Below, piece after piece: positions 134-27,001 of a DNA stretch of 64,000 nt (position 1 is the first letter of the stretch; each line of letters starts with the position of its first letter). Position numbers and translations under genes: made by a program. Origin of the DNA: Escherichia phage DaisyDussoix; the sequence record MZ501058; one strand, given 5' to 3'. The notes below the pieces were generated by a model. It searched no databases. It saw nothing but the letters and a program-made list of their open reading frames with translations, and was not told the origin of the DNA.

Positions 134-886
134 GAAGCTGGTTTACCTTCAGGATGCTTTGAGGAAAATCTTTTAGCAAAAAGATAGTCTTCTGCTTTAA
201 CTTCTCGCCAATTGCCTGTGGCTAAATCGCGATGAAATCCTGCATGACCTTGTAGGATTGAGAACACAACAATACTCCTGTATTGGAAATGAAATAAGTT
301 TTCTTTAGGACTATTCAGAAAGAATAGAACAACTGTTACTGTCAATTTCTCAACAATTAATCGCAAATACTGAAGGGGGGGTGGCAACTTCCCCTTTCAC
401 GCTACACTGCCGCTTCACTATACCGCACAAATCCTTGAGGATGGCCGCTAAGCCAGATTTGCTCACCTAATGCTTCATGTACTAGCTCATACTAGATGCA
501 GTATACCTTACGTCATCACTTCTCAGAGTTTTTCACTCTTCCCGTCTCACTTCACAACCACCTCACACTAGGTTGCTTCGAGGCCTTACCAGGGTTCCTA
601 CGGGGTGTAGATCGCTAAGTATTCTATTAACTATTTGTTTAAAAACTAACACGTAACAGTTAAAACAACCCTTAATGGGGCAGCCTAACTGTTCCGTATC
701 GCGGATTGTAAACAAGAAAAATTAGCAAAATCAGTTTTTACTAATGTCTCTCAATTCAATATAAATATTATAGCAAGATTTTGAGCATCGTGCAAGTAAA
801 TTTTTAAAGAGAATGCTATCATTGGTCTTGAGTACGGATAAAACCGAGCCAAAATGACTCGGTAATCAGGATTGAGCTAATGAAAA

Positions 887-1282
887 TCAATCATCATTTA
901 GGCCTGGGACATAGATTCCAATGCGATTTAATTGACCTTTAGCTTCTTCGAGAATATCTTCGGTGTACTCCCAAATATCATCTTCTACTTGCAAAAGATA
1001 AGGGGATTCACCAGTTTCGGGGTCACGTGTAATGGCTAAGCCACATGGATGGAATATAGAGAAGTTGAGGGCAACAATCAAGCCCATGCTGGACAATTCA
1101 TTCCAGTCAGCTTCCCAACCATCATCTTCATTTTCGTCCACAAAGACACCTACACTAGGGTCTGTTACAGAAGTAAACGGAAATGTTACACTAACCTTGT
1201 CAACCCCCAACCAACGTGCAAGGAGCCCCTCAGCACGCTCTACCAAACTAGGATCTATCTGACGCCAAAATACTTGTTCCAT
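887..1282 (-). CDS. hypothetical protein, tandem paralog B
   Basis: 131 aa ORF; shares W..D..W.EL..MGL..ALN...F.P......TGE.P....V...W.Y..E.....L.R.G...PGL pattern with the adjacent 142 aa ORF. Confidence 0.6.
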   Translation of the reverse strand: MEQVFWRQIDPSLVERAEGLLARWLGVDKVSVTFPFTSVTDPSVGVFVDENEDDGWEADWNELSSMGLIVALNFSIFHPCGLAITRDPETGESPYLLQVEDDIWEYTEDILEEAKGQLNRIGIYVPGLNDD

Positions 1283-1291
1283 TCTGCCTCC

Positions 1292-1720
1292 TTAAGCAGT
1301 TAAACCTGGGATCATATACCCGAAACGACGAAGTTTCTGAATCCCCTCATTTACTTCCTCGGGCGAATATGACCAGCCCTCACGTTCATTTACCTGGAAA
1401 GCAGGAGCTTCACCAGTGCGATAATTTACAATAAGACGGTGATTTGCAGGCATAAACAGCTTATGATTCAAGGCAAAAACCAGACCCATTTCATCGAGTT
1501 CTTTCCAGTCTACAATCTCTTCTACTCCCTCCCCTAAATCCACGCTAACTCCAATACACGGAGCTTCCTCTAGCGGGCCTTTAAAGGATAAGAAGATATC
1601 GTTATTCTCACACCAAATCTTGAGCAGATTGATGGTTTCATTATACATACCATTAGGGAGAGAGCGCCAGAAGTTGAGAAGCATAGGATTTACCTCTTTC
1701 ATGAAAATATTATTGAACAT
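1292..1720 (-). CDS. hypothetical protein, tandem paralog A
   Basis: 142 aa ORF, paralog of 887..1282; 9 nt gap to the next gene suggests an operon. Confidence 0.6.
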   Translation of the reverse strand: MFNNIFMKEVNPMLLNFWRSLPNGMYNETINLLKIWCENNDIFLSFKGPLEEAPCIGVSVDLGEGVEEIVDWKELDEMGLVFALNHKLFMPANHRLIVNYRTGEAPAFQVNEREGWSYSPEEVNEGIQKLRRFGYMIPGLTA

Positions 1721-1722
1721 GC

Positions 1723-2262
1723 TTATACCTTAAGTTTCTGAAGAGCCTTACACATTTCAAGATCTGGACTAAACTCCAGCATATAGCTGATAGCGTTTAA
1801 ATCTTGAAGGTTTATTCCAGTCCTGCCGTTTACAATAACAGTAGGAAATTGATACATCATAGCACCAGCATCATCTAGGACACACCAATGCTTGAGCTTA
1901 TATTTTTCGACAAAACGTAAAACAGAATTACCCCGAGATAAACCACCTCCAGTAAAATCTGTTGTACCAAGAAAACGATCGATCAAACCGAGTCCGGTCA
2001 TAATCTGAACGTTCTCCATTTCATTTCGTACAGAAAACCATGAAGATACCCCAACAATCATTATTGGGGATGGCTTAAGAAAGTTCTGAAAAGCCTGGAG
2101 TAATGGCTTGTAAACCCAATCACCACCAAAGAATAGCTTCTCACTATCTGGAGCATGATGGTGAGAGATGCTCGAATTGAGCACCCCATCAATATCCAGG
2201 AAAATCACAGGAGTATTACTTATTTCCACCAGTAGCATCCCACGTCCAGACTTTAACTTCAT
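1723..2262 (-). CDS. HAD-superfamily phosphatase/nucleotidase-like protein
   Basis: 179 aa; N-terminal FLDIDGVLN matches HAD motif I (DxDGx). Confidence 0.7.
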   Translation of the reverse strand: MKLKSGRGMLLVEISNTPVIFLDIDGVLNSSISHHHAPDSEKLFFGGDWVYKPLLQAFQNFLKPSPIMIVGVSSWFSVRNEMENVQIMTGLGLIDRFLGTTDFTGGGLSRGNSVLRFVEKYKLKHWCVLDDAGAMMYQFPTVIVNGRTGINLQDLNAISYMLEFSPDLEMCKALQKLKV

Positions 2263-2401
2263 CAGTAAAAGGAACTGGAACCTTCAATTCACCTTTACCC
2301 CACATAACAGATAGGAACAGAGAATAAATGGTAATCATACCGATTAGGTTGACAAACCATACTAGACCTTTCCAGATACCCTTAAAAATCTTCTTCACCA
2401 T
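2216..2401 (-). CDS. small membrane protein
   Basis: Internal start MVKKIFKGIWKGLVWFVNLIGMITIYSLF preceded by AGGAGGG RBS; one hydrophobic helix. Confidence 0.45.
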   Translation of the reverse strand: MVKKIFKGIWKGLVWFVNLIGMITIYSLFLSVMWGKGELKVPVPFTDEVKVWTWDATGGNK

Positions 2402-2561
2402 ATTCTCCCTCCTTAATAAGGAACTCTTTCCACTCTGCTGTATCCTCATAGATAACGCAGAAATCATCACTCTTCCATGAGAAGTCATCAGTAGCAAATT
2501 CGAAACGGTAGCACCAACTACCGTCTGGCCATACTAAAAGATCACACATGCTTTTCTGGGA
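2382..2561 (-). CDS. hypothetical small protein
   Basis: Start MSQKSMCDLL preceded by GGAGGG RBS; overlaps the Sir2-like gene end. Confidence 0.4.
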   Translation of the reverse strand, partial: SQKSMCDLLVWPDGSWCYRFEFATDDFSWKSDDFCVIYEDTAEWKEFLIKEGEYGEEDF

Positions 2562-3393
2562 CATAAATATTTCCCTCCATAAAAGCTTCAACTTGATCAA
2601 TAAAGTGTTTATTACCAAAAACTTCGGCAGCTCCAGCACGCCATACAGTAACACCACGTTTCTCATACTCAAGCTGTTCGTCATAACGAACTTGTGGGTT
2701 AACAACCATCATCTTAGTTCCACGACATACAGCAGGAAATAGCTCCCAGTTGAAGTCGATTACTTGGTTGCTACAACCTACTACAATAACCATATCATTG
2801 CTAGTAAGTGTATCAAACAGGTTAATCTGACCCATATACCACGGAGCCGTCTCACCAAAGAATGTTACGTTTGGTTTTACCCATTCGTAATCCTCAGGGG
2901 CAATAGCAGTATACCCAACATCTTCGATGATTTGGTTGCGACCCTGACGATAGATCACCTCTTTCAAGTACCCGTGAGCGTGAATGATTTCATCACGAGG
3001 GATACCAGCACGTTCCAGAAGGTCATCAACGTTAGTAGTGAAGTTCTTCACGCTATCCGCACCATAACGCTGGAACCATTCTGCAATTCGCAGATGGGCA
3101 ATGTTAGGCTCAACAGTCTGTAATTCCTGACGACGCATGTTGTAGAACTCATGAGTCTTGAGATACAGATCGTTACCATCTTTATCAATGCCAGGGAAAC
3201 GAGCACTGAAGTAGTTAGGATCATCTTCACCACAGAAGCGACGGAAGCCAGCTTCAAAGTTAGGCAAGCTACATACTTCCTCTAGATCGTACTCATCCCA
3301 CAAGGATTTCCCACTAGCAGTATCAGTACGGAAAGCACGAACACCACTATCTACACTCAAACCTGCACCACTAACAACGATTAGTCTACGCAT
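2542..3393 (-). CDS. Sir2-family NAD-dependent deacetylase/ADP-ribosyltransferase-like protein
   Basis: 283 aa; GAGLSVDSGVRAFR (Sir2 GAGIS..GIP.FR), TTNVDDLLERAG...HAHG (TQNID..HG), PNVTFFGE, GCSNQV motifs. Confidence 0.8.
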   Translation of the reverse strand: MRRLIVVSGAGLSVDSGVRAFRTDTASGKSLWDEYDLEEVCSLPNFEAGFRRFCGEDDPNYFSARFPGIDKDGNDLYLKTHEFYNMRRQELQTVEPNIAHLRIAEWFQRYGADSVKNFTTNVDDLLERAGIPRDEIIHAHGYLKEVIYRQGRNQIIEDVGYTAIAPEDYEWVKPNVTFFGETAPWYMGQINLFDTLTSNDMVIVVGCSNQVIDFNWELFPAVCRGTKMMVVNPQVRYDEQLEYEKRGVTVWRAGAAEVFGNKHFIDQVEAFMEGNIYVPEKHV

Positions 3394-3587
3394 TATACGA
3401 TTCCTTGCTTGAATCCTTCGATGATATTTTGGAGCAGAATTGCTTCTTCTGGGCGAACCTTCTCTTGCTTAATAAGCATATCCAAACCAGCAATACAGGT
3501 AGCTACTCCAGCATTATACCCAGCATTCCACTGCTCCATAAGCATATTTTCTAAATTACTTTTTAGATTCTGATTCAAGAAGTCCAT
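3393..3587 (-). CDS. hypothetical small protein
   Basis: ORF track 3393..3671 trimmed to internal Met (MDFLNQNL...). Confidence 0.35.
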   Translation of the reverse strand: MDFLNQNLKSNLENMLMEQWNAGYNAGVATCIAGLDMLIKQEKVRPEEAILLQNIIEGFKQGIV

Positions 3588-3759
3588 AAAGTTTTTCCTC
3601 CAATTCCATAATACGATTTTCGTAAGAAGCACGCAGCTTCTCGATGGACAAAGCACGAACTGTAACTTCATCTGAATTGATCGCTAGCTGAGCTAGATCT
3701 TCTGTTTCCATACGTCCGTTGTAAATTAAGCGATATTTAAGATGTTTTACGTTTTTCAT
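3556..3759 (-). CDS. hypothetical small protein
   Basis: 67 aa ORF in operon context. Confidence 0.4.
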   Translation of the reverse strand: MKNVKHLKYRLIYNGRMETEDLAQLAINSDEVTVRALSIEKLRASYENRIMELEEKLYGLLESESKK

Positions 3760-3768
3760 TCTTGTTCC

Positions 3769-4050
3769 TTAGTTCTGTACTGTAAATTCATTCTTATCAC
3801 AGTGAGCATAATAATACCCATACATACGATAAATTTTCACAGCCTTAGTAGACCCCTTCGATTCTTCATAATCAATCCAGAGCCACTTGTCTTTACCTAC
3901 ATAATGTACCCGAAACTTCTTAACTTTCTTATCATTCCATGTTGCAACAACACGACGATAATCAAATCCGCCCAACCAATCTAGAGCCTTACGTTCTTCA
4001 CTAGGCTCTCCAAGATGGGAAACATCTACTTTCGGAAGCAATTCGCTCAT
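3769..4050 (-). CDS. hypothetical protein
   Basis: 93 aa ORF directly downstream of nrdD; no radical-SAM CxxxCxxC motif, so not NrdG. Confidence 0.5.
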   Translation of the reverse strand: MSELLPKVDVSHLGEPSEERKALDWLGGFDYRRVVATWNDKKVKKFRVHYVGKDKWLWIDYEESKGSTKAVKIYRMYGYYYAHCDKNEFTVQN

Positions 4051-4148
4051 AGCTTTCTCCTCTCAAATTTATAAATCAATTATACATAAGTTTTAGCTCG
4101 AAAGCAAATAAAATAAAAGCCAGGTCGACTAGCAACCTGGCTGATTCA

Positions 4149-6023
4149 TTATTTAGCGCGAATGTCTTGATGTTTCACTCGACCCATAACCTCATGTTGT
4201 TTACCTGGGTTAAACGGACGAGCACCTGGATTTCCAAGATATCCACAAACTCGACGAGTTACCTCAAGAGTCTCAGGATCATGATTGCCACAAATTGGGC
4301 ATTTGAAACCATCCTCAGAAGCTATAGTTTCACCCAAGAACCCACATTCCCCACAAGAGTCTACTGGAGTATTAATACCGAAGTAATGAACTTTACTTGC
4401 AGCATAGTTAATAACCCATTCCAGTGCATCAGGGAATCGTTTCATATCCGGTAATTCCACATAGGAAATGCACCCACCAGAAGCAATAGGAGTAAAGTTA
4501 GACTCATAATCAAACTTCACATTTGGAGCAACCTTACGTTCTACATCAAGGTGATGGGAATTAGTGTAATATCCTTTAGCCAGAATATCTTCATGCTCTG
4601 GGAAATACTCACGGTCTAGGCGACAGAAGCGATCACATAGAGATTCAGATGGTGTAGCATACAGACTATACCCTAATTGAGTCTCTTCCTTCTTCTGATC
4701 AGCACGATCACGCATGTATTGTAGCACACGTTGAACGAACTTGATACAAGACTCAGACATTGTATCTACATCTTTACCAAACATGAGCTGCAACATTTCG
4801 TGGCAACCAATATATCCTAGAGATACAGAAGCACGCTTGTAGAAATGATCAAATACATATTCATCTGGCCCCAGACGTAATCCAAAGGCTCCTGACATAT
4901 AGAGGATGGGCGCAGCTTTAGCTTGAATGTATTTTAAGCGATCAACCCTCCACTCCAATGCTTTTAACGCGGTATCCACACGCAGCTCAAGCAGATCGAA
5001 GAATAGATCAATATTTCCTTCCGCTTCGATAGCGATTCGAGGAAGGTTTACGGAAACAACGCCTAAGTTGTTACGACCAGAAGTTTCACCATCTTCCGCA
5101 GCAGCCAGGAACGAACGACAGCCCATAGAGACTTTGTAGTCCCCCGTAACTTCTACAACCTTATCATAACTGATGTAGTCAGGATACATACGTTCAGCAG
5201 TACATTTCATAGCTAACTTCTTGATATCATAGTTAACATCACCAGGTTTCATGTTTACGCCCTCACGCAAAACAAATACCAGTTTAGGGAAGATAGCTGT
5301 ACGTTTATTGATACCCAAACCATCCATACGTACTTCTAGTATTGCTTTCTGTACAAGACGTGCTTCCCAAGAAGTTCCTAGACCAAAACCAAAGGTAATA
5401 AACGGACTTTGACCATTAGAGTTGAACATCGTATTGATTTCATACTCCAGGCCCTGACAGGCATCGTAAACTTCTTTCTCAGTCATTTCCGTAGCCATTA
5501 CAGATGCTTTAGCTTCATCCTTAGTCCAACGCTTTGCAAACGCATGATTCTTATCATAAGACTTACGAACATAAGGAGCCAATACTTCATCTAATCGGTC
5601 TACAGAAGTACCCCCATATTGATGTGAACTAACCTGAGTGATAATCTGAGCTGTGATAGCAGCCGCAGTAGTAATAGAGTTTGGTGTACTGATTTCAGCA
5701 TTACCAACCTTCATACCATTCTTCAACATATCTTCCAAAGCAACCAGGCAACAGTTAGTCATACCTAACGCAGCGTAATCAGCATCATGGAAGTGAATAT
5801 CACCAATCATGTGAGCATTTCGAATCTGGATGGGCATTTCTTCCAGAATCAGATATTTACTCAATTCCCCTGCAAGCATATCCCTTTGTGTAGGGAAACG
5901 TTCTGAGGGCTTATTGGCATTATTAAACAGCAGCTCTTCATCTGCTGAACCTTCGATAATTTCTTTGCAGTTTCGAATCAAGGACTGCATTCCTTTATAC
6001 TTTAGTTCTTCATTGCGATTCAT
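4149..6023 (-). CDS. nrdD: anaerobic ribonucleoside-triphosphate reductase (class III RNR)
   Basis: 624 aa; C-terminal Zn-ribbon CGECG...CPICG and glycyl-radical motif RVCGYLG. Confidence 0.95.
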   Translation of the reverse strand: MNRNEELKYKGMQSLIRNCKEIIEGSADEELLFNNANKPSERFPTQRDMLAGELSKYLILEEMPIQIRNAHMIGDIHFHDADYAALGMTNCCLVALEDMLKNGMKVGNAEISTPNSITTAAAITAQIITQVSSHQYGGTSVDRLDEVLAPYVRKSYDKNHAFAKRWTKDEAKASVMATEMTEKEVYDACQGLEYEINTMFNSNGQSPFITFGFGLGTSWEARLVQKAILEVRMDGLGINKRTAIFPKLVFVLREGVNMKPGDVNYDIKKLAMKCTAERMYPDYISYDKVVEVTGDYKVSMGCRSFLAAAEDGETSGRNNLGVVSVNLPRIAIEAEGNIDLFFDLLELRVDTALKALEWRVDRLKYIQAKAAPILYMSGAFGLRLGPDEYVFDHFYKRASVSLGYIGCHEMLQLMFGKDVDTMSESCIKFVQRVLQYMRDRADQKKEETQLGYSLYATPSESLCDRFCRLDREYFPEHEDILAKGYYTNSHHLDVERKVAPNVKFDYESNFTPIASGGCISYVELPDMKRFPDALEWVINYAASKVHYFGINTPVDSCGECGFLGETIASEDGFKCPICGNHDPETLEVTRRVCGYLGNPGARPFNPGKQHEVMGRVKHQDIRAK

Positions 6024-6132
6024 TATACCCTCCTTCTCTAACTAAGACTACTATTATAACTCATTCGAAGGCGGATGTCAACAATATTTTACTATAACAT
6101 TCTGTAAATTGATCTGAGTCAAAAAATTTTAT

Positions 6133-6161
6133 TTGCCAACCTCTATTAAAAATAGTATAAT
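6133..6161 (+). promoter_or_regulatory. sigma70-type promoter (upstream of phoH)
   Basis: TTGCCA -35 and TATAAT -10 with AG upstream. Confidence 0.5.
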
Positions 6162-17572: not shown

Positions 17573-17890
17573 ATGATTTTTCATATTCTTATTGATGATG
17601 TTCGTGTCCTGCATGGGATGGATATTATCATTCGAACCCCCGAAGCCGCTATTGAGTTTCTGAATACAACCGATACCACCGGACATTTCGTTTATATGGA
17701 TAACGATCTGGCTGTAGATGGTATGGAAGGTTATCAAATTCTTCGATTACTCCTAGAATTTGGTCAGAGACCCAAGAAAGTGGTACTAGTAACCTCGAAC
17801 CCAGTAGCTAAAGAGACCATGCGTAATGATCTCCTAGACGAAGGGTATCAAGAAAGCCCTAATCGTATTGAGTACGATTGGCCGGAGTAA
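17573..17890 (+). CDS. receiver (CheY-like) domain-like protein
   Basis: 105 aa; HILIDDV...FVYMDNDLAVDGMEGYQILRLL...VVLVTSNP resembles REC-domain acidic pocket and D/T/K positions; weak. Confidence 0.45.
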   Translation: MIFHILIDDVRVLHGMDIIIRTPEAAIEFLNTTDTTGHFVYMDNDLAVDGMEGYQILRLLLEFGQRPKKVVLVTSNPVAKETMRNDLLDEGYQESPNRIEYDWPE

Positions 17891-19922: not shown

Positions 19923-19994
19923 CGGGGTGTAGTCTAAGGGATAGGCAGGAGTCTTCTAAATTCCTTTATGCAGGTTCGAATCCTGTCACCTCGG
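19923..19994 (+). tRNA. tRNA-Arg (anticodon UCU)
   Basis: Acceptor CGGGGTG/CACCTCG, loop CTTCTAA, T-arm GCAGG-TTCGAAT-CCTGT, encoded CCA. Confidence 0.8.
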
Positions 19995-20023
19995 CCAATT
20001 TTATTAACTGCTAGGAAAATAAA

Positions 20024-20224
20024 GTGAAAACACGATATATAGTAAAAGTAGTAGGTGAACATTCACAAGTAAATACCACCGATGTTACAGCGCTAGCATT
20101 TGAAGTAGTCTCCGGTATAGTCATATTTCATAACGGAGATATCAAAGCTCCTGAATTTGCTGTGGATGCTAGCCTGTTTATTTCTGCAACTAAAGTAACT
20201 GTAGTAGCTAACTCTTCTAAATAA
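20024..20224 (+). CDS. hypothetical small protein
   Basis: 66 aa ORF just after tRNA-Arg. Confidence 0.4.
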   Translation: MKTRYIVKVVGEHSQVNTTDVTALAFEVVSGIVIFHNGDIKAPEFAVDASLFISATKVTVVANSSK

Positions 20225-20235
20225 TAAGGAAATAT

Positions 20236-21180
20236 ATGTTTACTAAAAATATGAAAGAACTGACTTCTGAGCAAAAAGTAATTCGCACTATTAAACGTTG
20301 GGGTATTGGTGCTGTAGTTGGTTTAGCAGGTTTAATCCTAGCTTTTAATTCATATACTATTGTTTCTGATGGTACGGTTAAAACCCAAACATTTCTTGGT
20401 AAAGTAGATCCTAATCCAGTATTACCTGGTTTCCATCTTGTAAACCCATTTGCATCTTTCGATACTTTTAGTACAAAAGATATTGCTGTAAAATTAGATA
20501 AACTTCAGGTTCCTAGCCAGGATAAGTTTAAATCCACTGTTGACCTGACTGTTATGTTGCAGTTTGACGGTTCTAAGGCACCGATCAACCGTATTAATGC
20601 AGGTACTCAGGATCAGGCTCTAGATAAGTACGTAACTGAAAAATTACTGTCTACTATTCGTGAGTTTGGTAAGTCTGTACCTAAAGCACAAGATTTATTT
20701 GATGCTAAAATTCAGGCTCAATTGCAAACTGCAATTCAACAGGAAGTTGAAGAGTATGCACGCCCTTATGGTTACACAGTTAAGCAAGTGTTCCTTCAGG
20801 ATATTACGTTGCCACCGGTAATCATGGAACAGGTACAAAATACCAAAGTTCGTGAAGAACAGGTTAATGCTGCGAAAGCTGAGTTGGCTCGTGTTGAACA
20901 AGAAGCACAGCAGAAGGTTAAACAAGCAGAAGCAGATCGTGAAGCTCGTAACAACCAAGCTATTGCAAACGAACGTGATGCAGATGCTAAACTGTACGCA
21001 GCTAAGAAAGAAGCCGAAGCTAACGCCGCGCTGCAACGTACTATTACTCCTGAGATGATTCGCTGGAAACAACTAGAAGTTGAAATGATTCGTGCTCAGA
21101 AATATCAAGGTGGTGTACCGCAAACAGTGGTTGGCACTGGTTATGATGGCCAGATGATTATGGATATGCGTAACAAGTAA
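20236..21180 (+). CDS. SPFH/band-7 (prohibitin/HflK-like) membrane protein
   Basis: 314 aa; N-terminal TM segment, then SPFH-like core and long Ala/Gln/Glu-rich coiled-coil. Confidence 0.7.
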   Translation: MFTKNMKELTSEQKVIRTIKRWGIGAVVGLAGLILAFNSYTIVSDGTVKTQTFLGKVDPNPVLPGFHLVNPFASFDTFSTKDIAVKLDKLQVPSQDKFKSTVDLTVMLQFDGSKAPINRINAGTQDQALDKYVTEKLLSTIREFGKSVPKAQDLFDAKIQAQLQTAIQQEVEEYARPYGYTVKQVFLQDITLPPVIMEQVQNTKVREEQVNAAKAELARVEQEAQQKVKQAEADREARNNQAIANERDADAKLYAAKKEAEANAALQRTITPEMIRWKQLEVEMIRAQKYQGGVPQTVVGTGYDGQMIMDMRNK

Positions 21181-21204
21181 TATCCGCATGTAATCTCTGA
21201 AGTA

Positions 21205-21240
21205 AACCCTGTGTTCCCTGGAGAGCGCAGGGTTTTTCTG
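21205..21240 (+). terminator. rho-independent terminator after SPFH gene
   Basis: AACCCTG...CAGGGTTTTTCTG. Confidence 0.6.
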
Positions 21241-21275
21241 TATAACGTATTTATAAAATCAACTAGGAGATCAAA

Positions 21276-21795
21276 TATGAGTGTTGATGAGTTGACCCGG
21301 CACCTTCTATCTAGAGGGTTTGATACAGATAAATATCATTGCTGGTTAAGTCCGGAAGGATGGCTAACAGTCCCGTTGTATGATTTCTCTGGGATGTTGA
21401 GGGGCTATCAGACGTATAATCCTTCTGCTCCAAAAGGTCATGGTAAGTGTCCCTTTGAGGCTAAATATTTTACCTACTCTACTACCCAGTGTGTATGGGG
21501 ACTAGAAACTCTCAATGGAGATGAAAAAGTAGTATTGATTGCTGAATCTGTATTTAAGGCAGTTGCATTACATAATGCTGGTTATCCAGCCCTAGCAATG
21601 TTGGGTTCTACCCCAGGAAAAGCGTTATTAAAGCAACTGAAATTACTACCTTTTAAATTGGTAGCTGTCGGGGATAATGATCCTGCGGGTGAAAAATTTG
21701 CTAGAAAATTAAACGGCTTTGTTTCTCCTGTAGATGTGGATGAGATGTCTACCGAAAACTTGAAAAATTTTCTTGCTATGAAGCTAAATTTCTAA
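21276..21795 (+). CDS. Toprim-domain protein
   Basis: Internal ATG (MSVDELTRH) with AGGAGA RBS; VVLIAESVFKAVAL...VGDNDPAGEKFA resembles Toprim DxD region. Confidence 0.5.
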
Positions 21796-21801
21796 TATAA
21801 T
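21773..21801 (+). promoter_or_regulatory. T5-type early promoter driving the tRNA-Ser block
   Basis: TTCTTGCT ... CTAATATAATATATCTTATAAATTCGGAAG. Confidence 0.6.
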
Positions 21802-21816
21802 ATATCTTATAAATTC

Positions 21817-21902
21817 GGAAGAATAGCATAACGGTATTGCAGCAGATTGCTAATCTGTCGGTTTGAAATATAGCCTTGTGGGTTCGATTCCCACTTCTTC
21901 CG
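21817..21902 (+). tRNA. tRNA-Ser (anticodon GCU), type II
   Basis: Acceptor GGAAGAA/TTCTTCC, loop TTGCTAA, long variable arm, T-arm GTGGG-TTCGATT-CCCAC, CCA. Confidence 0.85.
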
Positions 21903-21911
21903 CCAAATTCT

Positions 21912-21986
21912 GGTTCTCAAGCTCATATGGTATGAGCACCCAGCTCATAACTGGAAGGTACGTAGGTTCGAATCCTCGGGGAGCCA
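21912..21986 (+). tRNA. tRNA-Met or Ile2 (anticodon CAU)
   Basis: Acceptor GGTTCTC/GGGAGCC with G-U pairs, D-stem GCTC/GAGC, loop CTCATAA, CCA; T-stem pairs imperfectly. Confidence 0.7.
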
Positions 21987-22009
21987 CCAACTTAATTAGG
22001 GGATTACAA

Positions 22010-22198
22010 GTGGAATTATACATAGTTTATGTTGTGTTTATTCAAGATAGAGAATACCCTGATGAATATAAAAAAGGATATAGGTTAGCCAGAGCTACCT
22101 CTGAAGCCCAAGCTATGGATAAAGTGGCAGATTATATGATTACGGTAGAAAACGTACACTATATCGACTACCTTGAGGCCTCAAAAGTAATTGACTAA
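22010..22198 (+). CDS. hypothetical small protein
   Basis: ORF 21863..22198 trimmed to a GTG start after the CAU tRNA, because its 5' part overlaps two tRNA genes. Confidence 0.3.
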   Translation: MELYIVYVVFIQDREYPDEYKKGYRLARATSEAQAMDKVADYMITVENVHYIDYLEASKVID

Positions 22199-22207
22199 GG
22201 AGACTAT

Positions 22208-22393
22208 ATGTCCAAGTTTCAAGAACTCAAGCAAGAGCTAGAAGAATGTGCCTGCCCTGAGTGTAGGGGAATTGGTGAAAGTTCTGATGCAGAAGCAGGA
22301 GATACTTTTTGCAATATCTGGGTTTGCCCAAATTGCAATGGTACAGGTATTAATCCTAACTGTGGTATTTCTCTAGATATTGAAAGAGGGTAA
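22208..22393 (+). CDS. Cys-rich zinc-ribbon-like small protein
   Basis: 61 aa with CxxC...CxxC pairs. Confidence 0.45.
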   Translation: MSKFQELKQELEECACPECRGIGESSDAEAGDTFCNIWVCPNCNGTGINPNCGISLDIERG

Positions 22394-22493
22394 TATCTGT
22401 GAAACTAAAAGATTATTATATTGGTTGGTTTGTGGGACTAGTAGTAGGATTTTCACTAGGCTATAATATGTATCAACTAATAAACTGATTACA

Positions 22494-22567
22494 CGGGGGT
22501 GTAATCGAATTGGCATAGGTACTGGACTTAAAATTCAGGTTTTGTGGGTTCGAATCCCACCACCCCT
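22494..22567 (+). tRNA. tRNA with anticodon UAA (Leu-like) and short variable arm
   Basis: Acceptor GGGGGTG/CACCCCT, anticodon stem CTGGA/TTCAG, loop CTTAAAA, T-arm GTGGG-TTCGAAT-CCCAC, CCA. Confidence 0.7.
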
Positions 22568-22586
22568 ACCAAATTAAGGAAATAAG

Positions 22587-22754
22587 ATGTATAGACCTCC
22601 ACCTCCGCCAACACGTCGTTCTAGAGAAGTTATCCTCATGGAATTGACTAAAAACTTCAAGGCAACTCTTGAAGATAGAGATTTAGGCACGGATGAAGAC
22701 ATTGATTTTATTTGTAGACTATTAAAGATGAAACTGGAGAAACAACATGGCTAA
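22587..22754 (+). CDS. hypothetical Pro-rich small protein
   Basis: About 55 aa (MYRPPPPPTRRS...) with AAGGAAA RBS right after a tRNA; below ORF-track cutoff. Confidence 0.3.
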   Translation: MYRPPPPPTRRSREVILMELTKNFKATLEDRDLGTDEDIDFICRLLKMKLEKQHG

Positions 22755-22953
22755 TCCTGAAATTACCGCACAACGTTTCATGCTTAAAGGCATGATTGCT
22801 GAAGCAGGTATGACTCAAGAGGTTGCAGACTTTCATAAGCAAATTCTTGATATTATAACCCTAGCTAAAGAGACTGGAGAAAAAGAGCACGCAGCAGCAA
22901 TTATGGCTATATCTCTTATTAGTCTAGACTTGGCTGAAGAATCTGGAGTTTAG
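22747..22953 (+). CDS. hypothetical small protein
   Basis: 68 aa ORF. Confidence 0.45.
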   Translation: MANPEITAQRFMLKGMIAEAGMTQEVADFHKQILDIITLAKETGEKEHAAAIMAISLISLDLAEESGV

Positions 22954-22983
22954 CTCCTCCAAATAGAATTTTTAAAAATGTAC

Positions 22984-23013
22984 TTGCCTTTTGCTTTAAA
23001 TTTCTGATATAAT
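22984..23013 (+). promoter_or_regulatory. T5-type early promoter
   Basis: TACTTGCC ... TCTGATATAATAGTTATATAAATTGATGAAGGAG. Confidence 0.65.
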
Positions 23014-23043
23014 AGTTATATAAATTGATGAAGGAGTTAACTA

Positions 23044-23319
23044 ATGCAAAATCGTGTTATAGCAACTGGTATTGAAAGTGCAATCTGTAAATCCTGGGAA
23101 GGCTGGGAAGGTGAGATTGAATGGCTTTATTTCTACGATGTAGAACTTCTGCCGGAAGTTAAAGCTAAATGTGTTGAAGCTGGAATGGCTCCAGATGCAA
23201 AAGCTGATATTGATATTTCAATGTCTGAACTTAAAGGCCGTGTAATTACTGTTAGTGATGAGGGTGAAGAAGTTTTCGAACTTCCATTCTCCTTAACTGT
23301 CACTCCTAAGTTCGACTAA
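23044..23319 (+). CDS. hypothetical acidic protein
   Basis: 91 aa ORF with AAGGAG RBS. Confidence 0.5.
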   Translation: MQNRVIATGIESAICKSWEGWEGEIEWLYFYDVELLPEVKAKCVEAGMAPDAKADIDISMSELKGRVITVSDEGEEVFELPFSLTVTPKFD

Positions 23320-23354
23320 CTAATACAGCACTGAGCAAGTTCTTTAAAATTTGA

Positions 23355-23384
23355 CTTGCTCAGTGCCTTAAAACTTGGTATAAT
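23355..23384 (+). promoter_or_regulatory. T5-type early promoter driving the Tyr-Glu-Trp-Phe tRNA block
   Basis: TTGACTTGCT ... TTGGTATAATAGTTATCTAATTTGGAA. Confidence 0.65.
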
Positions 23385-23447
23385 AGTTATCTAATTTGGA
23401 AACATATTTAAAAGTGTTTAAACTAGTATTTTAGTACTTTTAAATAT

Positions 23448-23524
23448 GTTGGATTAGTATCGTAGAGGTAGCGAAGCAGACTGTAAATCTGCCGACTCGG
23501 GTGGTTCGACTCCATCATCCAACA
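23448..23524 (+). tRNA. tRNA-Tyr (anticodon GUA)
   Basis: Acceptor GTTGGAT/ATCCAAC, stem GCAGA/TCTGC, loop CTGTAAA, T-loop TTCGACT, CCA. Confidence 0.8.
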
Positions 23525-23534
23525 CCAAATTTAA

Positions 23535-23608
23535 GTCCTGTTAGACAAACTGGTAAAGTCACTACCCTTTCAAGGTAGGATTTGCGGGTTCGATCCCCGC
23601 ACAGGACG
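23535..23608 (+). tRNA. tRNA-Glu (anticodon UUC)
   Basis: Acceptor GTCCTGT/ACAGGAC, stem CTACC/GGTAG, loop CTTTCAA, T-arm GCGGG-TTCGATC-CCCGC, CCA. Confidence 0.85.
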
Positions 23609-23620
23609 CCAATTTCTGCA

Positions 23621-23693
23621 TTCCTAGAGTGTTACTGGACAGCATGTCGGTCTCCAAAACCGTACGGTCTAGGTTCGAGTCCTAGTAGGTTTG
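23621..23693 (+). tRNA. tRNA-Trp (anticodon CCA), acceptor stem with 5'-end mismatches
   Basis: D-stem TGTT/AGCA, loop CTCCAAA, T-arm CTAGG-TTCGAGT-CCTAG, CCA; positions 1-2 appear unpaired in my reading. Confidence 0.55.
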
Positions 23694-23702
23694 CCAAAAT
23701 TT

Positions 23703-23774
23703 GCACCTTTAGCTGAGATGGATTAGCGCTTGCCTGAAGAGCTTGAGAGGTTCGTTCGATACGAACAGGGTGCA
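23703..23774 (+). tRNA. tRNA, probably Phe (GAA); anticodon arm ambiguous
   Basis: Acceptor GCACCTT/AGGGTGC, T-arm GTTCG-TTCGATA-CGAAC, CCA; loop CTGAAGA gives GAA with weak stem, alternative register gives CUG. Confidence 0.6.
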
Positions 23775-23779
23775 CCAAA

Positions 23780-24067
23780 TTGAAGGAGCTGCTGATGCAT
23801 CCTGAAAACTTCTTTATTTACTGCGCGGATAAGTCGCTGAAACGTAGAATTAACAAAGTCTATCATTATCGTGCTAGTCAACAGCCTTATGTATACGCTT
23901 TTGACGGTAATCACATTCCATTAGAACAATTATCCTGTGATTACATGATATTGAAGAACTTTGACGAGACAAAGATCTCAAGCGTTCACAATCGACAGAA
24001 TCCATTAACGTGGAAACATAAGAAGAAAAAGAAAGGTATCAAATTCTTAAAAAATGTAGTTGCTTAG
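23780..24067 (+). CDS. hypothetical protein
   Basis: 95 aa ORF with AAGGAG RBS after the tRNA block. Confidence 0.45.
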   Translation: MKELLMHPENFFIYCADKSLKRRINKVYHYRASQQPYVYAFDGNHIPLEQLSCDYMILKNFDETKISSVHNRQNPLTWKHKKKKKGIKFLKNVVA

Positions 24068-24088
24068 TTTCCAAAAGTTCTGTATAAT
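24060..24088 (+). promoter_or_regulatory. T5-type early promoter
   Basis: GTAGTTGCTT ... TCTGTATAATAATTACATAAATTGAACTGGAG. Confidence 0.65.
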
Positions 24089-24136
24089 AATTACATAAAT
24101 TGAACTGGAGAAGCAACATGACAGAACAAGATAAAC

Positions 24137-24209
24137 CGACCGTTGGCTGAATGGCTTAGGCGAAGGATTGCAAATCCTTTTTATGTGAGTTCAAATCTCA
24201 TGCGGTCGT
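24137..24209 (+). tRNA. tRNA-Cys (anticodon GCA)
   Basis: Acceptor CGACCGT/GCGGTCG, stem AAGGA/TCCTT, loop TTGCAAA, T-loop TTCAAAT, CCA. Confidence 0.8.
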
Positions 24210-24233
24210 CCAAATTACTAAAGGAAAGAAGTA

Positions 24234-24752
24234 GTGCATACAAAAGTTTTTGATAGTTTGGTAAAGAAAGGCGTTGTTACTAATGAGCCCTTCTGTATAA
24301 CCGCAGAACTAATCCAAAGATTTATGGAAGAATATATAAATCTTTCAGGAACCAATGGTAACACCAAAAAGAATACAAATACTATGTATTCGAGAAAACT
24401 TGCTGCACTTTCCTTTATAAAGTTTAAGCAGGAAAATAAACTTCCTATTTCTGAAGGTTTTGTATACTGTATTAGTAATCCTGCATGGAAAAATCAGTAT
24501 AAAATAGGTATGAGTCAAAATCCGAAGGAGAGATTAGCTCAATATCAGACTTATTCCCCTTATAGGGATTATAAGTTAGAGCATTGGTCTTTTTGGTTTG
24601 ACAAACGAAAAGGTGAAAAACTAATTCACCAGTATTTCAAAGATTTAAAAGAACATGAGTGGTTTAGTATAAATTCTAGGGATCTTAGTAAATATCTAGG
24701 ACGTATTAACTCTAGTTCTGACTTATATGGTTCCTTAGCTCTAATTGGTTAG
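24234..24752 (+). CDS. T5orf172-domain (GIY-YIG-related) protein, putative homing endonuclease
   Basis: 172 aa; GFVYCISNPAWKNQYKIGMSQNPKERLAQYQTYSP matches the T5orf172/MUG113 core; 3' end overlaps tRNA-Asn. Confidence 0.75.
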   Translation: MHTKVFDSLVKKGVVTNEPFCITAELIQRFMEEYINLSGTNGNTKKNTNTMYSRKLAALSFIKFKQENKLPISEGFVYCISNPAWKNQYKIGMSQNPKERLAQYQTYSPYRDYKLEHWSFWFDKRKGEKLIHQYFKDLKEHEWFSINSRDLSKYLGRINSSSDLYGSLALIG

Positions 24753-24803
24753 AGCGGCATCTTGTTAAGTTGAGGGTTGCTGGTTCGAATCCAGCAGGAA
24801 CCG
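24729..24803 (+). tRNA. tRNA-Asn (anticodon GUU), weak anticodon stem
   Basis: Acceptor GGTTCCT/AGGAACC, D-stem GCTC/GAGC, loop TTGTTAA, T-arm GCTGG-TTCGAAT-CCAGC, CCA; overlaps 3' end of T5orf172 ORF. Confidence 0.7.
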
Positions 24804-24908
24804 CCAAATTCTGTGTAGAGTTAAGTAAACCGGTAGCCAACCAGCTATCATTGCTGACATCGAATTCAGCCACAGATACCATTTTCATTAATAACTGAGG
24901 AAACAAGC

Positions 24909-25094
24909 ATGTCCAAGAATGTGATTGCGCAGCTAGAAGTTCATCGTGATAGCACTATCAACAACATTGAAGTTGAAAAGAAATACATCGAAGAACTTAA
25001 ACATGATATACTAGTAAGTCTCAACCGTCTTAATGTACGAAAAGAGTTTCTTAAAGAACTTAATGCAGCTATTGAAAAACTCAAAGCTGAGTAA
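24909..25094 (+). CDS. hypothetical small protein
   Basis: 61 aa ORF. Confidence 0.4.
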   Translation: MSKNVIAQLEVHRDSTINNIEVEKKYIEELKHDILVSLNRLNVRKEFLKELNAAIEKLKAE

Positions 25095-25103
25095 ATAAAT
25101 TAT

Positions 25104-25177
25104 GCGACCGGGGCTGGCTTGGTAATGGTACTCCCCTGTCACGGGAGGGAATGTGGGTTCAAATCCCATCGGTCGCG
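25104..25177 (+). tRNA. tRNA-Asp (anticodon GUC)
   Basis: Acceptor GCGACCG/CGGTCGC, stem CTCCC/GGGAG, loop CTGTCAC, T-loop TTCAAAT, CCA. Confidence 0.85.
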
Positions 25178-25205
25178 CCAAATTAATTTAGTATGAGAAT
25201 ATACT

Positions 25206-25553
25206 ATGCGTAATGCAAAAGAAGAGCTGTTACTTGCCTTAAAAAATACTAATTCTGAAGTTAAATGTATTAAAATAGAATTCGGGTATTATGGGGATAA
25301 AAAAGTTTGGGTATTGCCTTTAGGTTACACAGAAGAAGATATTGAGGATTTTCTTAATAACCTAGACTTTAAATATGACTCTGGATATGGTGGACAATTA
25401 CTTTATGGTAATGTATGGTTTGCCGATGGAACTTGGTTAGAACGTGGTGAATATGATGGTTCTGAATGGTGGGAATATAAGGCTACACCAGCAATCCCAG
25501 AAGAATGCCGAACAATTAATGGTGAAGTAGATAATACTTTACGGTTAAACTAA
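25206..25553 (+). CDS. hypothetical protein
   Basis: 115 aa ORF. Confidence 0.5.
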   Translation: MRNAKEELLLALKNTNSEVKCIKIEFGYYGDKKVWVLPLGYTEEDIEDFLNNLDFKYDSGYGGQLLYGNVWFADGTWLERGEYDGSEWWEYKATPAIPEECRTINGEVDNTLRLN

Positions 25554-25561
25554 TAAAATTT

Positions 25562-25672
25562 CAGTGCAGAACACGGAGCTAGCAATTAGGAAGTGCTGAC
25601 TCATGATAAGCTGCCTATGTACTTGCAAAGCGGTCGTGTCCAAGACTCGGACTCTTGCACTGAAAACAATCA
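25562..25672 (+). ncRNA. structured RNA candidate closed by 8-bp terminal stem
   Basis: 5' TCAGTGCA pairs with 3' TGCACTGA enclosing about 95 nt; no ORF; no canonical T-loop. Confidence 0.3.
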
Positions 25673-25674
25673 AA

Positions 25675-25788
25675 CATTCTAGCGTGGTTGATGGGGAAAC
25701 CAGCTTGGCTAGGGCAGAAGCTCGTTCGATTCGAGTGAAAGAATGGTTCTCGTAAGTCCGCACAAGTGATAATAGGTTCGAGTCCTGT
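25675..25788 (+). ncRNA. tRNA-like structured RNA candidate (two T-arm-like hairpins, 7-bp closing stem)
   Basis: 5' ATTCTAG pairs with 3' CTAGAAT; internal CTCG-TTCGATT-CGAG and ATAGG-TTCGAGT-CCTGT hairpins; too long for a tRNA. Confidence 0.3.
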
Positions 25789-25805
25789 CTAGAATGACAC
25801 TATAA

Positions 25806-25930
25806 AGTTTACTTATTATGTAGGTTCCGATAGATCGGAGGGTCTATTCTGGCATTTAAGAGAGGTCTCGCAAACGTCTTTGTCAGCCGTGGGGTTGGTA
25901 GCCTCCAGGTGGCCTACACAATAAGTAAAT
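25806..25930 (+). ncRNA. structured RNA candidate closed by about 16-bp terminal stem
   Basis: 5' TTACTTATTATGTAGG pairs with 3' CCTACACAATAAGTAA with one mismatch; no ORF. Confidence 0.3.
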
Positions 25931-25945
25931 TTATTAAAAATTCAT

Positions 25946-25974
25946 TTGCTATTCTGCTTTATTATCTGTATAAT
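25946..25974 (+). promoter_or_regulatory. T5-type early promoter (HNH gene 26007)
   Basis: AAAATTCATTTGCT ... TCTGTATAATATATTTTATAAAGTGAAGAG. Confidence 0.7.
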
Positions 25975-26006
25975 ATATTTTATAAAGTGAAGAGAAGGAA
26001 AGCTAA

Positions 26007-26582
26007 ATGGAAGGATTTAAGCCAATACCCGAGTATCCAGAATACTTAGTATCTGAGAAGGGAGAAATATACTCTACTATCAGTAATAAATATCTAAAAC
26101 CTACTATAAACGGAAAAGGCTATTACCACTTTGCAGTACGTGAAGATACTAATAAGTATAAATGGCTCCAGCTGCACAGAGTCATATGCAGAGTTTATGG
26201 CAATCTCCCCTCTTTAGATAGTGAAATGGAAGTAGATCATAATGATCGTAATAAGCTTAATATACTCCCTAGTAATTTAGTTGCCAGAGAGAAGAAAGAT
26301 CATTATGATAAAACTACACTGGAGAGAGGAAAAACTATAGGGGGCACTAGATGTATAGTCTGTAATAAGAGGATACACTCTGGTCGAGAATACTGTATAA
26401 ATTGCAGCCCAGTTAAACAGACTAAATCTCCAGAGATTACCGCAGAACAGATAGAATATTGGGTATCAAAGTATTCCTGGACTAGAGCTGCAAAAGAGTT
26501 AAATTTATCTGATAATGGTCTACGAAAACGGTATACTAAATTAACAGGTAAATCCCCAAAAGAAATTAAAAAATCAGGGTAA
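26007..26582 (+). CDS. HNH homing endonuclease, family B
   Basis: 191 aa; N-terminal PEYPEYLVSEKGEIYS module, EVDHNDRNKLN HNH motif, CxxC...CxxC Zn site; paralogs at 27903 and 29338. Confidence 0.85.
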   Translation: MEGFKPIPEYPEYLVSEKGEIYSTISNKYLKPTINGKGYYHFAVREDTNKYKWLQLHRVICRVYGNLPSLDSEMEVDHNDRNKLNILPSNLVAREKKDHYDKTTLERGKTIGGTRCIVCNKRIHSGREYCINCSPVKQTKSPEITAEQIEYWVSKYSWTRAAKELNLSDNGLRKRYTKLTGKSPKEIKKSG

Positions 26583-26649
26583 GGGCGATAAGGTACGCCA
26601 CCTCGTTTGGGGTGAGGAAATCTTTAGAGTTCGAGTCCTGCCGCACTGA
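26575..26649 (+). tRNA. tRNA-Pro (anticodon UGG)-like; acceptor and T-stem imperfect
   Basis: D-arm GGCG-ATAAGGTA-CGCC, stem CCTCG/TGAGG, loop TTTGGGG, CCA present; acceptor has two mismatches; overlaps HNH ORF end. Confidence 0.45.
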
Positions 26650-26658
26650 CCAAACAAC

Positions 26659-26733
26659 TGCGGGTTAGATCTCTGGTAGAGATCGCTAGTCTCATAAGCT
26701 AGAAAGAGGTAGGTTCGATTCCTGCACCCGCTT
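26659..26733 (+). tRNA. tRNA-Met (anticodon CAU) with 1-72 mismatch
   Basis: Acceptor TGCGGGT/ACCCGCT, D-stem GATC/GATC, stem CTAGT/GCTAG, loop CTCATAA, T-arm GTAGG-TTCGATT-CCTGC, CCA. Confidence 0.7.
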
Positions 26734-26756
26734 CCACTTTAATAGAGGATTTCGAA

Positions 26757-26924: not shown

Positions 26925-26925
26925 T

Positions 26926-27001
26926 AGATCGCTAGCTCAATAGGTTTAGTAGCATCCGACTTTTAATCGGAAGGTTCTGGGTTCGAGTCCCAGGCGATCT
27001 A
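26926..27001 (+). tRNA. tRNA-Lys (anticodon UUU)
   Basis: Acceptor AGATCGC/GCGATCT, stem TCCGA/TCGGA, loop CTTTTAA, T-arm CTGGG-TTCGAGT-CCCAG, CCA. Confidence 0.85.

Follow-up and report, generated by a model that had tools for sequence, protein, structure and literature searches.

Which substrate does a sirtuin encoded by a T5-like phage act on, and what does it share with the phosphatase encoded beside it? This question is raised by a locus of Escherichia phage DaisyDussoix (sequence record MZ501058), of which we analysed a stretch of 64,000 nucleotides (nt), hereafter the window. On the minus strand, the window encodes a Sir2-like sirtuin of 283 amino acids (aa) at 2542-3393, followed by a HAD phosphatase and two paralogous proteins, within a compact unit of nine genes. 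The explanation that we rank first, and hold tentatively, is NAD+-dependent RNA-end repair by this Sir2-HAD cassette. The locus itself is genuine but already known, being annotated in hundreds of records, and a mechanistic prediction for it was published in 2022. All genes named in the first-pass annotation of this DNA, made from the letters alone, lie where it placed them, on the minus strand.

To place the protein in its family, we compared it with domain profiles and homologues. It matched Pfam SIR2 (PF02146) at 77.7 bits, against a cutoff of 24, and phrog_2162 at 2.5e-107. The first-pass annotation had described its GAGxS, HG and FGE motifs as intact, which was confirmed: G9-A10-G11-L12-S13 and H140-G141 are invariant across 35 homologues, as are F179 and E181 of the FGE motif (F179-G180-E181), with G180 varying in a few members. 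Also invariant in this set are the NAD+ loop residues G9, A10, G11, S13, S16, G17, F21 and R22, which are common to CobB of E. coli (sequence taken from the MG1655 genome for the alignment). Catalytic H140 aligns with H147 of CobB (long-form numbering), the helix motif P96-N97-x-A99-H100 is kept between the two proteins, and GxS (G206-x-S208) and N232 are kept as well. The TQNID motif reads T119-T120-N121-V122-D123 in phage Sir2, where Asn and Asp are kept and Gln is changed to Thr in every clade member; N121, D123 and H140 are invariant among the 35 homologues. In the class III pocket, F83-Y84-N-M-R87-R88 aligns with F-Y92-N-A-R95-R of CobB, and Y84 and R87 are again invariant. Judged from these alignments, all residues required for NAD+ binding and nicotinamide cleavage are present in phage Sir2.

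Other parts of the protein depart from CobB. No cysteine was found at the CobB zinc-ligand positions in any of 19 aligned phage sequences, and at the place of the lost zinc module the AlphaFold2 model puts a beta-hairpin (strands 141-150 and 153-158). A strand of the substrate cleft, NQVINFNWELFP, is almost invariant within the phage clade, unlike the 'GHVYPAAGF' of CobB, and some clade members carry a variable insertion of 25-30 aa after residue 47. All 35 clade members are acidic, with an isoelectric point (pI) of 4.65-6.05. In a sequence search of the PDB, the nearest solved relatives were E. coli CobB (1s5p, 1.7e-16), then Archaeoglobus Sir2-Af1/Af2 and SIRT5. The AlphaFold2 model, built from the 35 homologues, reached a predicted local distance difference test (pLDDT) of 88.8 and a predicted template modelling score (pTM) of 0.87. 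When it was searched with Foldseek, the top 10 matches were CobB (target-normalised TM 0.82-0.85), followed by Af1-Sir2 and SIRT5. Phage Sir2 is thus a divergent, zinc-less class III (CobB/SIRT5-type) sirtuin.

These relatives bring in the explanation that comes a close second in our ranking, which we regard as possible yet doubtful, namely that Sir2 is a CobB-like NAD+-dependent lysine deacylase, whether a deacetylase, a desuccinylase or a lipoamidase. Early in infection, the enzyme would reset the acylation state of host or phage proteins, for example of replication, transcription or nucleotide-metabolism enzymes. Protein deacylation and counter-defence (see below) had both been put forward in the first-pass annotation, and both stay candidate roles. 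Besides the sequence and structure matches (TM up to 0.85 for CobB), the class III YxxR and the catalytic His required for deacylation are invariant, the protein is acidic like many deacylases, and all its NCBIfam matches are to 'NAD-dependent protein deacylase' models; deacylase is also the default GenBank annotation of the gene. Against the CobB equivalog and subfamily models (NF040867, NF001753-5), on the other hand, it scored 71-88 bits, far under the cutoffs of 243-320. The clade-wide loss of the zinc module, the differing conserved cleft segment and the change of Gln to Thr in TQNID in all members argue against this explanation too, and the host has CobB already.

The first-pass annotation had also pointed to Sir2 domains as defence effectors. 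Applied to this locus, Sir2 would be a phage-borne, defence-type NADase that depletes NAD+ for superinfection exclusion or host shut-off, which we consider very improbable. Its catalytic Asn, Asp and His are intact, and bacterial immune systems often have Sir2 domains as their NADase effectors (PMC9503650). No PADLOC defence profile, those for defence Sir2 included, matched Sir2 or any protein of the nine-gene unit at E <= 0.01, and Pfam and PHROG searches of the unit found no SLOG, HerA, TIR or pAgo domain that could act as sensor or partner. The same searches found no Macro domain among the nine genes, so the adjacent macrodomain gene that characterises SirTM is lacking. Moreover, this is a stand-alone enzyme of 283 aa nearest to deacylases, and the phage encoding it is strictly lytic and itself uses an NAD+-dependent ligase. 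Phage Sir2 is not of the defence type, and that part of the first-pass annotation was not borne out. As a side observation, one public record calls the Sir2 protein a 'tail assembly protein'; we rejected this label, which has no supporting domain evidence, as annotation noise.

The second enzyme of the cassette is the HAD phosphatase (1723-2238, minus strand; 171 aa, or 179 aa when read from the ATG at 2262). It matched Pfam HAD_SAK_2 (PF18143) at 65.5 bits, against a cutoff of 27.5, over profile positions 1-138 of 139, in agreement with the phosphatase call of the first-pass annotation. Its catalytic motifs, namely motif I L-D15-I-D17-G-V-L-N-S followed by S65/S66-W-F, T-G-G-G-x-x-R102 and V-x-D122-D123, are conserved in an alignment of five divergent homologues, down to 33% identity, with D15-x-D17-G-V, S65/S66, R102 and D122-D123 invariant; therefore, it is likely an active phosphatase. 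Neither a sequence search nor a search with the five-member profile found a solved relative in the PDB. Pfam names the family after RNA-repair proteins. A separate observation concerns public annotation of this gene. With PHROG 18062, whose name is 'Sir2 (NAD-dependent deacetylase)', the HAD protein has a match at 8.6e-54 in its C-terminal half, and owing to this misnaming many RefSeq and GenBank records show two 'Sir2' genes at the locus; the second label is an annotation error spread via PHROG-based pipelines.

How constant is the pairing of the two enzymes? Sir2 homologues were found in 977 of 50,697 phage records and HAD homologues in 497. Relative to the window protein, Sir2 identity is 96-100% in Epseptimavirus, 63-77% in Klebsiella T5-like phages, 57-60% in phi92-like phages and their relatives, 51-52% in Tequintavirus (the T5 group, e.g. 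SP15), 46% in rV5-like Vequintavirus, and 30-36% in KVP40-like Vibrio phages and jumbo phages. The gene order in the window and in SP15 is Sir2-small-(small)-HAD, and in Erwinia phage KEY and a metagenomic contig (L006) it is HAD_SAK_2-small-SIR2-small. Thus, Sir2 and HAD remain adjacent in divergent Demerecviridae despite the reversed order. Sir2 occurs without HAD in at least 480 phage records, and HAD occurs in 34 records of Aeromonas phages, a host genus that is not among the ten most frequent in the Sir2 search. The pairing is therefore a feature of Demerecviridae.

A constant phosphatase partner in this family could also fit a CobT/CobC-like riboside synthesis, in which Sir2 would move a phosphoribosyl group from nicotinamide mononucleotide, nicotinic acid mononucleotide or NAD+ to a base and HAD would remove the phosphate. 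The original genetic role of CobB, compensating for CobT (cited in PMC9503650), points the same way. The proposal is purely speculative, acceptor-base pathway genes are not present, and the many phages with Sir2 and no HAD speak against it, so that we give it hardly any weight.

The annotation of sirtuin genes in T5-like phages goes back years. A paper of 2016 (PMC5107563) refers, for this gene, to the T5 genome report of 2005, and the gene is also listed in genome announcements. According to Iyer, Burroughs, Anantharaman and Aravind (Viruses 2022 14:1977, PMC9503650), the majority of viral sirtuins belong to a clade of their own, in which three gene neighbourhoods are conserved. Type 1, in jumbo phages, comes with 2H, Nudix, cREC and PIN; type 2, in phage V5 and Proteus phage Mydo, with a T4-like tRNA ligase, cREC, a kinase, MazG and a calcineurin-like phosphoesterase; and type 3 combines the sirtuin with a Swiss-army-knife HAD in T5-like phages such as SP15. 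The authors propose (section 3.7.3) that the sirtuin strips 2'-phosphates from RNA, analogous to KptA. The window locus is their type 3 neighbourhood, and SP15 has the same gene order.

To see what accompanies Sir2 outside the T5-like phages, we examined Vequintavirus Murica, whose Sir2 orthologue is 46% identical (E about 1e-82). Its operon contains, in this order, RNA_lig_T4_1 (55.5 bits), cREC_REC (54.5 bits), SIR2 and an NTP pyrophosphohydrolase, and is adjoined by a divergent AAA_33 kinase and a Metallophos phosphoesterase, next to a tRNA cluster. In rV5-like phages, cREC thus stands between the RNA ligase and Sir2. We take these parts to map one-for-one onto the Trl1 and Tpt1 tRNA splicing enzymes of fungi and plants, that is, a kinase, a cyclic phosphodiesterase, an Rnl1-type ligase and a 2'-phosphotransferase. 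In the window, a cREC_REC protein ('cyclic-phosphate processing receiver domain', 105 aa) is encoded at 17573-17890 on the plus strand, unlinked to the Sir2 unit. It matched Pfam PF20274 at 55.3 bits (cutoff 27) and the Murica cREC by BLASTP at E = 4e-6, and is a possible third component of the Sir2-HAD system. The same protein is annotated merely as hypothetical in phage Stitch. ARAGORN found 23 tRNA genes at 19923-31279 (plus strand, opposite to the Sir2 unit), which is typical of T5-like phages.

For the substrate and biological role of the enzyme, we infer the following scheme. The sirtuin would take NAD+ as ADP-ribosyl donor and remove a phosphate from damaged RNA, as a non-homologous functional analogue of Tpt1/KptA. 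Such damage could consist of tRNA or mRNA ends that remain after cleavage by anticodon nucleases of the host or by other metal-independent RNases. HAD_SAK_2, probably with cREC, would either take off terminal or cyclic phosphates or act as a phosphatase on the by-product, ADP-ribose-phosphate. Sealing would rely on a host ligase, because T5-like phages are without an RNA ligase of their own. RNA-end repair comes first in our ranking because no other explanation accounts for a linkage with phosphoesterases, cREC and RNA ligase that recurs from one phage family to another.

Several observations weigh against RNA-end repair. When the Murica proteins were searched against the window with tblastn, the RNA ligase, kinase, MazG and Metallophos protein had no match and just cREC was matched; only 14 Salmonella phage records carry an Rnl1-type ligase. 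With neither ligase nor kinase in T5-like phages, there is no known step that would make the 2'-phosphate junction. In the phi92-like locus (L004), which has the closest Sir2 relative at 57-60% identity, no RNA-repair gene was identified beside Sir2; Pfam and PHROGs gave a Metallophos/NinI-like phosphatase 6 kb away and unnamed families. An acidic pI in 35 of 35 clade members is unusual for an RNA-binding enzyme, and beyond residues common to CobB, the alignment showed no conserved basic patch. Genuine deacylases (CobB, Af1-Sir2, SIRT5) are the nearest proteins both in sequence and in structure, and the pocket residues Y84 and R87 are invariant. Literature searches found no experimental study of any T5 or other phage sirtuin of the clade. 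As for the phosphatase, in the one Aeromonas T4-like phage examined, phiWae14, HAD overlaps the 3' end of the thymidylate synthase gene. A HAD_SAK_2 gene in this position, without Sir2, suggests a nucleotide phosphatase. Finally, the adjacency of Sir2 and HAD is weaker evidence than a linkage across unrelated genomes, because both genes lie in an ancestrally syntenic early region.

Part of this context would suit the lysine deacylase, for which the HAD protein would be an unrelated nucleotide phosphatase that shares the operon: the coupling to thymidylate synthase in Aeromonas phages agrees with such a phosphatase, and the Sir2 operon lies among genes of nucleotide metabolism and replication. 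A deacylase leaves unexplained, however, the linkage with phosphoesterases, RNA ligase and cREC.

We then delimited the transcription unit. Phage records matching bases 600-4200 of the window numbered 471, with at least 80% of the stretch covered in 187 of them. These bases share 99.1-99.4% identity with Salmonella phages ZBSTP12, 3-29, fuchur and Stitch (Demerecviridae, Markadamsvirinae, Epseptimavirus), and the locus was found at >=99% identity in 14 GenBank phage records. Stitch is annotated in the order anaerobic ribonucleotide reductase, three hypothetical proteins, 'Sir2-like protein', five hypothetical proteins, terminator, and replication-origin-binding protein.

In the window, nrdD occupies 4149-6023 on the minus strand (stop codon 4151-4149). 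An intrinsic terminator (4109-4142, minus strand) lies directly 3' of this stop, between nrdD and the Sir2 unit. In the terminator scan, its hairpin (4142-4118) has a 10-bp stem with 6 GC pairs and a T-run; the fold has a free energy of -16.1 kcal/mol (z -4.3), and none of 200 shuffled sequences was equally stable. A putative promoter for the nine genes, TTGCTT-17 nt-TATAAT (4079-4107, minus strand), was read from the sequence. Its -10 hexamer is perfect, and it falls below the scan threshold because the -35 hexamer has just 3 of 6 matches. A Shine-Dalgarno sequence and the start of orf93 come after it. At the other end, the unit is closed after the second paralogue by an intrinsic terminator (837-863, minus strand) consisting of a hairpin (863-843; -13.2 kcal/mol, z -4.3) and a U-run, at a place where the Stitch record also annotates a terminator. 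From the nrdD terminator, the promoter-like site and the closing terminator, it follows that the Sir2 genes form their own nine-gene transcription unit beside nrdD. The adjacency to nrdD claimed in the first-pass annotation thus holds, whereas a shared nucleotide-metabolism operon does not, with terminator and promoter-like site in between. Transcriptional read-through from nrdD into the Sir2 unit may still take place. Elsewhere in this region, we noticed back-to-back, near-consensus sigma-70 promoters between nrdD and a divergent phoH-like gene (6053-6161), with TTGACA-17-TATAAT (12/12) on the minus strand and TTGCCA-17-TATAAT (11/12) on the plus strand.

Within the unit, genes overlap by 1-32 nt or are separated by gaps of 2-9 nt. 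Five small proteins, all on the minus strand, were characterized by PHROG matches together with sequence properties or hydropathy. The first gene, orf93 (3769-4050; phrog_7953), encodes a soluble protein, and in Tequintavirus SP15 its position is taken by an unrelated 126-aa gene. It is followed by orf67 (3556-3759; phrog_5236), a small helical soluble protein, and orf64 (3393-3587; phrog_5827), a small acidic soluble protein whose stop shares 1 nt with the Sir2 start. Downstream of Sir2 are orf60 (2382-2564; 60 aa, phrog_5116), small, acidic (pI 4.1), Trp/Cys-rich and soluble, and orf61 (2216-2401; 61 aa, phrog_11166), with a predicted single transmembrane helix. Only orf61 among the small proteins of the unit has a hydrophobic helix (19-residue Kyte-Doolittle maximum 1.93). 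Accordingly, of the small membrane proteins proposed in the first-pass annotation, orf61 can be retained, whereas orf60, acidic and not hydrophobic, cannot. The whole is a tightly packed, conserved early Sir2 cassette of T5-like phages (Demerecviridae).

Conservation along this cassette was uneven when its proteins were compared with those of SP15. On the nrdD side, identity was 98% for nrdD and 86% for orf67; it fell to 34% for orf64, 52% for Sir2 and 57% for orf60, and on the far side it was 89% for HAD, 74% for DUF7415-A and 71% for DUF7415-B, the two paralogues described below. The orf61 gene is not present in SP15, and the nucleotide comparison with SP15 gave no alignment across 2229-2733. 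The low identity of orf64-Sir2-orf60 between well-kept flanks therefore marks a divergent island inside a conserved region. In line with this, the Sir2 gene figures among the variable loci in a study that compared T5-like subgroups in 2018 (PMC5816814). The window Sir2 is nearer to that of phi92-like phages (57-60%) than to that of Tequintavirus (51%), which suggests that the island arose by cassette exchange. Further, orf60 has the motif 'W-x-DG-x-WCYR', and a homologue with 'DG-x-WCYR' lies directly 3' of Sir2 in SP15 and in the distant Demerecviridae contig L006, so orf60 is a candidate Sir2 partner. Having diverged together with Sir2, orf64 and orf60 are candidate regulators or adaptors.

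A locus far more divergent than its flanks would be expected in an arms race, and this is one reason to weigh another explanation, in which Sir2 and the phosphoesterases process small NAD+-derived molecules (ADP-ribose-derived immune signals or NAD+ breakdown products) as counter-defence or signal processing. We think it improbable, though less so than riboside synthesis or a defence NADase. The partners in various phages (HAD, cREC, Metallophos, MazG-like) are all nucleotide phosphoesterases or pyrophosphatases, and the phi92-like locus has a gene of the Acb2/Tad1-hairpin sponge family (anti-CBASS/Thoeris; L004 2942-3211) about 4 kb upstream of Sir2. However, we know of no sirtuin that acts on such signals. 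The class III acyl-/peptide-binding features are kept, and consuming NAD+ would bring no obvious gain to a phage whose NAD+-dependent DNA ligase needs it. NAD+ does appear to be contested in this phage group, as related Epseptimaviruses carry the NAD+-rebuilding NARP3 pair PnuC/NadR (PMC13464706), yet NARP3 is not in the window.

The PnuC/NadR pair itself (NARP3 counter-defence, Sci Adv 2026) is annotated in Stitch; the regions compared were record coordinates 36595-41684 of Stitch (L002 22595-27684) and about 21243-22732 of the window. The pair had no tblastn match anywhere in the window, so this phage is without it or has it outside the window. NARP3 was rejected as a Sir2-linked partner on the ground that it is present in Stitch and absent from the window.

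The last two genes of the unit encode the paralogues DUF7415-A (1292-1720; 142 aa) and DUF7415-B (887-1282; 131 aa), both on the minus strand and both assigned to Pfam PF24187 and PHROG 2502. They are true paralogues (31% identity over 124 aa, E = 8e-21), as the first-pass annotation had it. The whole proteins matched PF24187 at 125.5 and 95.6 bits, and both halves of each matched it as well (73.3, 56.6, 43.9 and 55.7 bits; cutoff 27). A profile-profile comparison of N- and C-terminal halves (hhalign) was not significant, with a probability of 19%, so the two-repeat architecture is as called by Pfam and should be regarded as putative. The C-terminal half of DUF7415-B holds the canonical core 'DWNELSxxGLIxxLNxxIFHPxGLAIxRDPxTGxSP'. 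In a profile search of 1.84 billion representatives, we obtained 159 DUF7415 proteins, mostly of 60-200 aa, and most have the common C-terminal core 'DWNELSxxGLIxxINxEILHPxGLAIxRDPxTGxS'. The AlphaFold2 model of DUF7415-A (pLDDT 88.1, pTM 0.83) runs in the order beta, alpha, three beta, two alpha, two beta, alpha. It matches no solved or named fold, and BFVD returned just DUF7415 proteins of T5-like, Proteus, Morganella and Vibrio phages. Where the first-pass annotation saw neither family nor fold, the family can now be named, and for the fold a confident model finds no solved match. A literature search found no paper mentioning DUF7415.

DUF7415 occurs in 898 phage records, many of them without Sir2, and is therefore probably outside the Sir2 system. 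Outside the T5/Epseptimavirus group, Demerecviridae (KEY, L006) have the Sir2-HAD pair and no DUF7415; the paralogues are probably a lineage-specific addition that the Sir2 module can dispense with. Their company elsewhere is of another kind. In Klebsiella Jiaodavirus, a 77-aa single-domain DUF7415 gene (L012 3480-3713) is placed between nrdD and nrdG, with an overlap on either side; in RB43, a member is encoded one gene downstream of nudE; and among the cluster representatives, two fuse DUF7415 to a dATP/dGTP pyrophosphohydrolase (PF04447) and one fuses it to thymidylate kinase (PF02223) (fusion proteins P0283, P0286 and P0204). These associations are suggestive, and the pair is probably a separate accessory tied to deoxynucleoside triphosphate (dNTP) metabolism. 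So far as our searches show, this recurrent link has not been described before. The public labels 'exonuclease' and 'tail tube protein' for DUF7415 proteins were rejected as annotation noise, as they have no supporting domain evidence (records with doubtful DUF7415 or Sir2 names: P0003, P0018, P0020, P0028 and P0058).

Taken together, these elements allow a broader reading, which is possible but to be treated with reserve. The zinc-less Sir2 would be the first nucleic-acid-acting sirtuin and, as a non-homologous substitute for Tpt1/KptA, would use NAD+ to remove RNA 2'-phosphates, with HAD and cREC assisting. The co-diverging orf64 and orf60 would modulate the enzyme or direct it to its targets, as part of an arms race with RNA-cleaving host defences. 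Separately, DUF7415 would be a new alpha/beta fold that attaches to the machinery of dNTP synthesis (NrdD/NrdG, MazG-like dATP/dGTP pyrophosphatase, thymidylate kinase).

To what was known of the locus, our analysis adds the boundaries of the transcription unit, the placement of the sirtuin in class III without a zinc site, a divergent island in which mini-proteins co-vary with Sir2, the unlinked cREC, the counter-arguments to the RNA model (acidic pI, no phage ligase) and the association of DUF7415 with nucleotide-metabolism enzymes. If RNA repair is true, a sirtuin scaffold would be doing chemistry so far known just from the unrelated Tpt1/KptA, and host defences that cleave tRNA or other RNA would face a specific countermeasure in T5-like and rV5-like phages. 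This would matter for phage therapy, as many cocktails include T5-like phages of Salmonella and E. coli. Should the enzyme be a protein deacylase instead, we would have a rare example of a host acyl-proteome rewritten by a phage. In both cases, the sirtuin gene is abundant among phage records and highly conserved.

Compared with known systems, the window locus shows no essential difference from type 3 of the viral sirtuin clade of Iyer et al. (2022). Its HAD protein resembles the HAD_SAK_2 family in its full-length, above-threshold match and in motifs I-IV, which are kept; unlike HAD_SAK_2 in Swiss Army Knife proteins, it stands alone at 171 aa, and related phage copies adjoin the thymidylate synthase gene. 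With the defence Sir2 NADases (ThsA, DSR1/2, Sir2-HerA, SPARSA), phage Sir2 shares the superfamily and the substrate NAD+, but it has no PADLOC match, sensor or partner domain, and its nearest structures are deacylases. CobB and SIRT5 are much closer in fold, NAD+ loop, nicotinamide-pocket Asn/Asp, catalytic His, FGE loop and Y-x-x-R. Nevertheless, phage Sir2 is just 26-31% identical to them, and its clade is without the four zinc cysteines, has Thr for Gln in TQNID and has a different conserved cleft strand. As for Tpt1/KptA, the likeness is that proposed for the chemistry, in which NAD+ would donate ADP-ribosyl to a phosphate oxygen and nicotinamide would be released. Tpt1 belongs to the ADP-ribosyltransferase superfamily, whereas the phage enzyme has a Rossmann-type sirtuin fold, and Tpt1/KptA proteins are basic, whereas phage Sir2 is acidic. 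What the two have in common beyond the proposed chemistry is the genomic setting of the rV5-like phages, where the neighbours of the sirtuin gene encode an Rnl1-type ligase, a kinase and an enzyme that processes cyclic phosphates.

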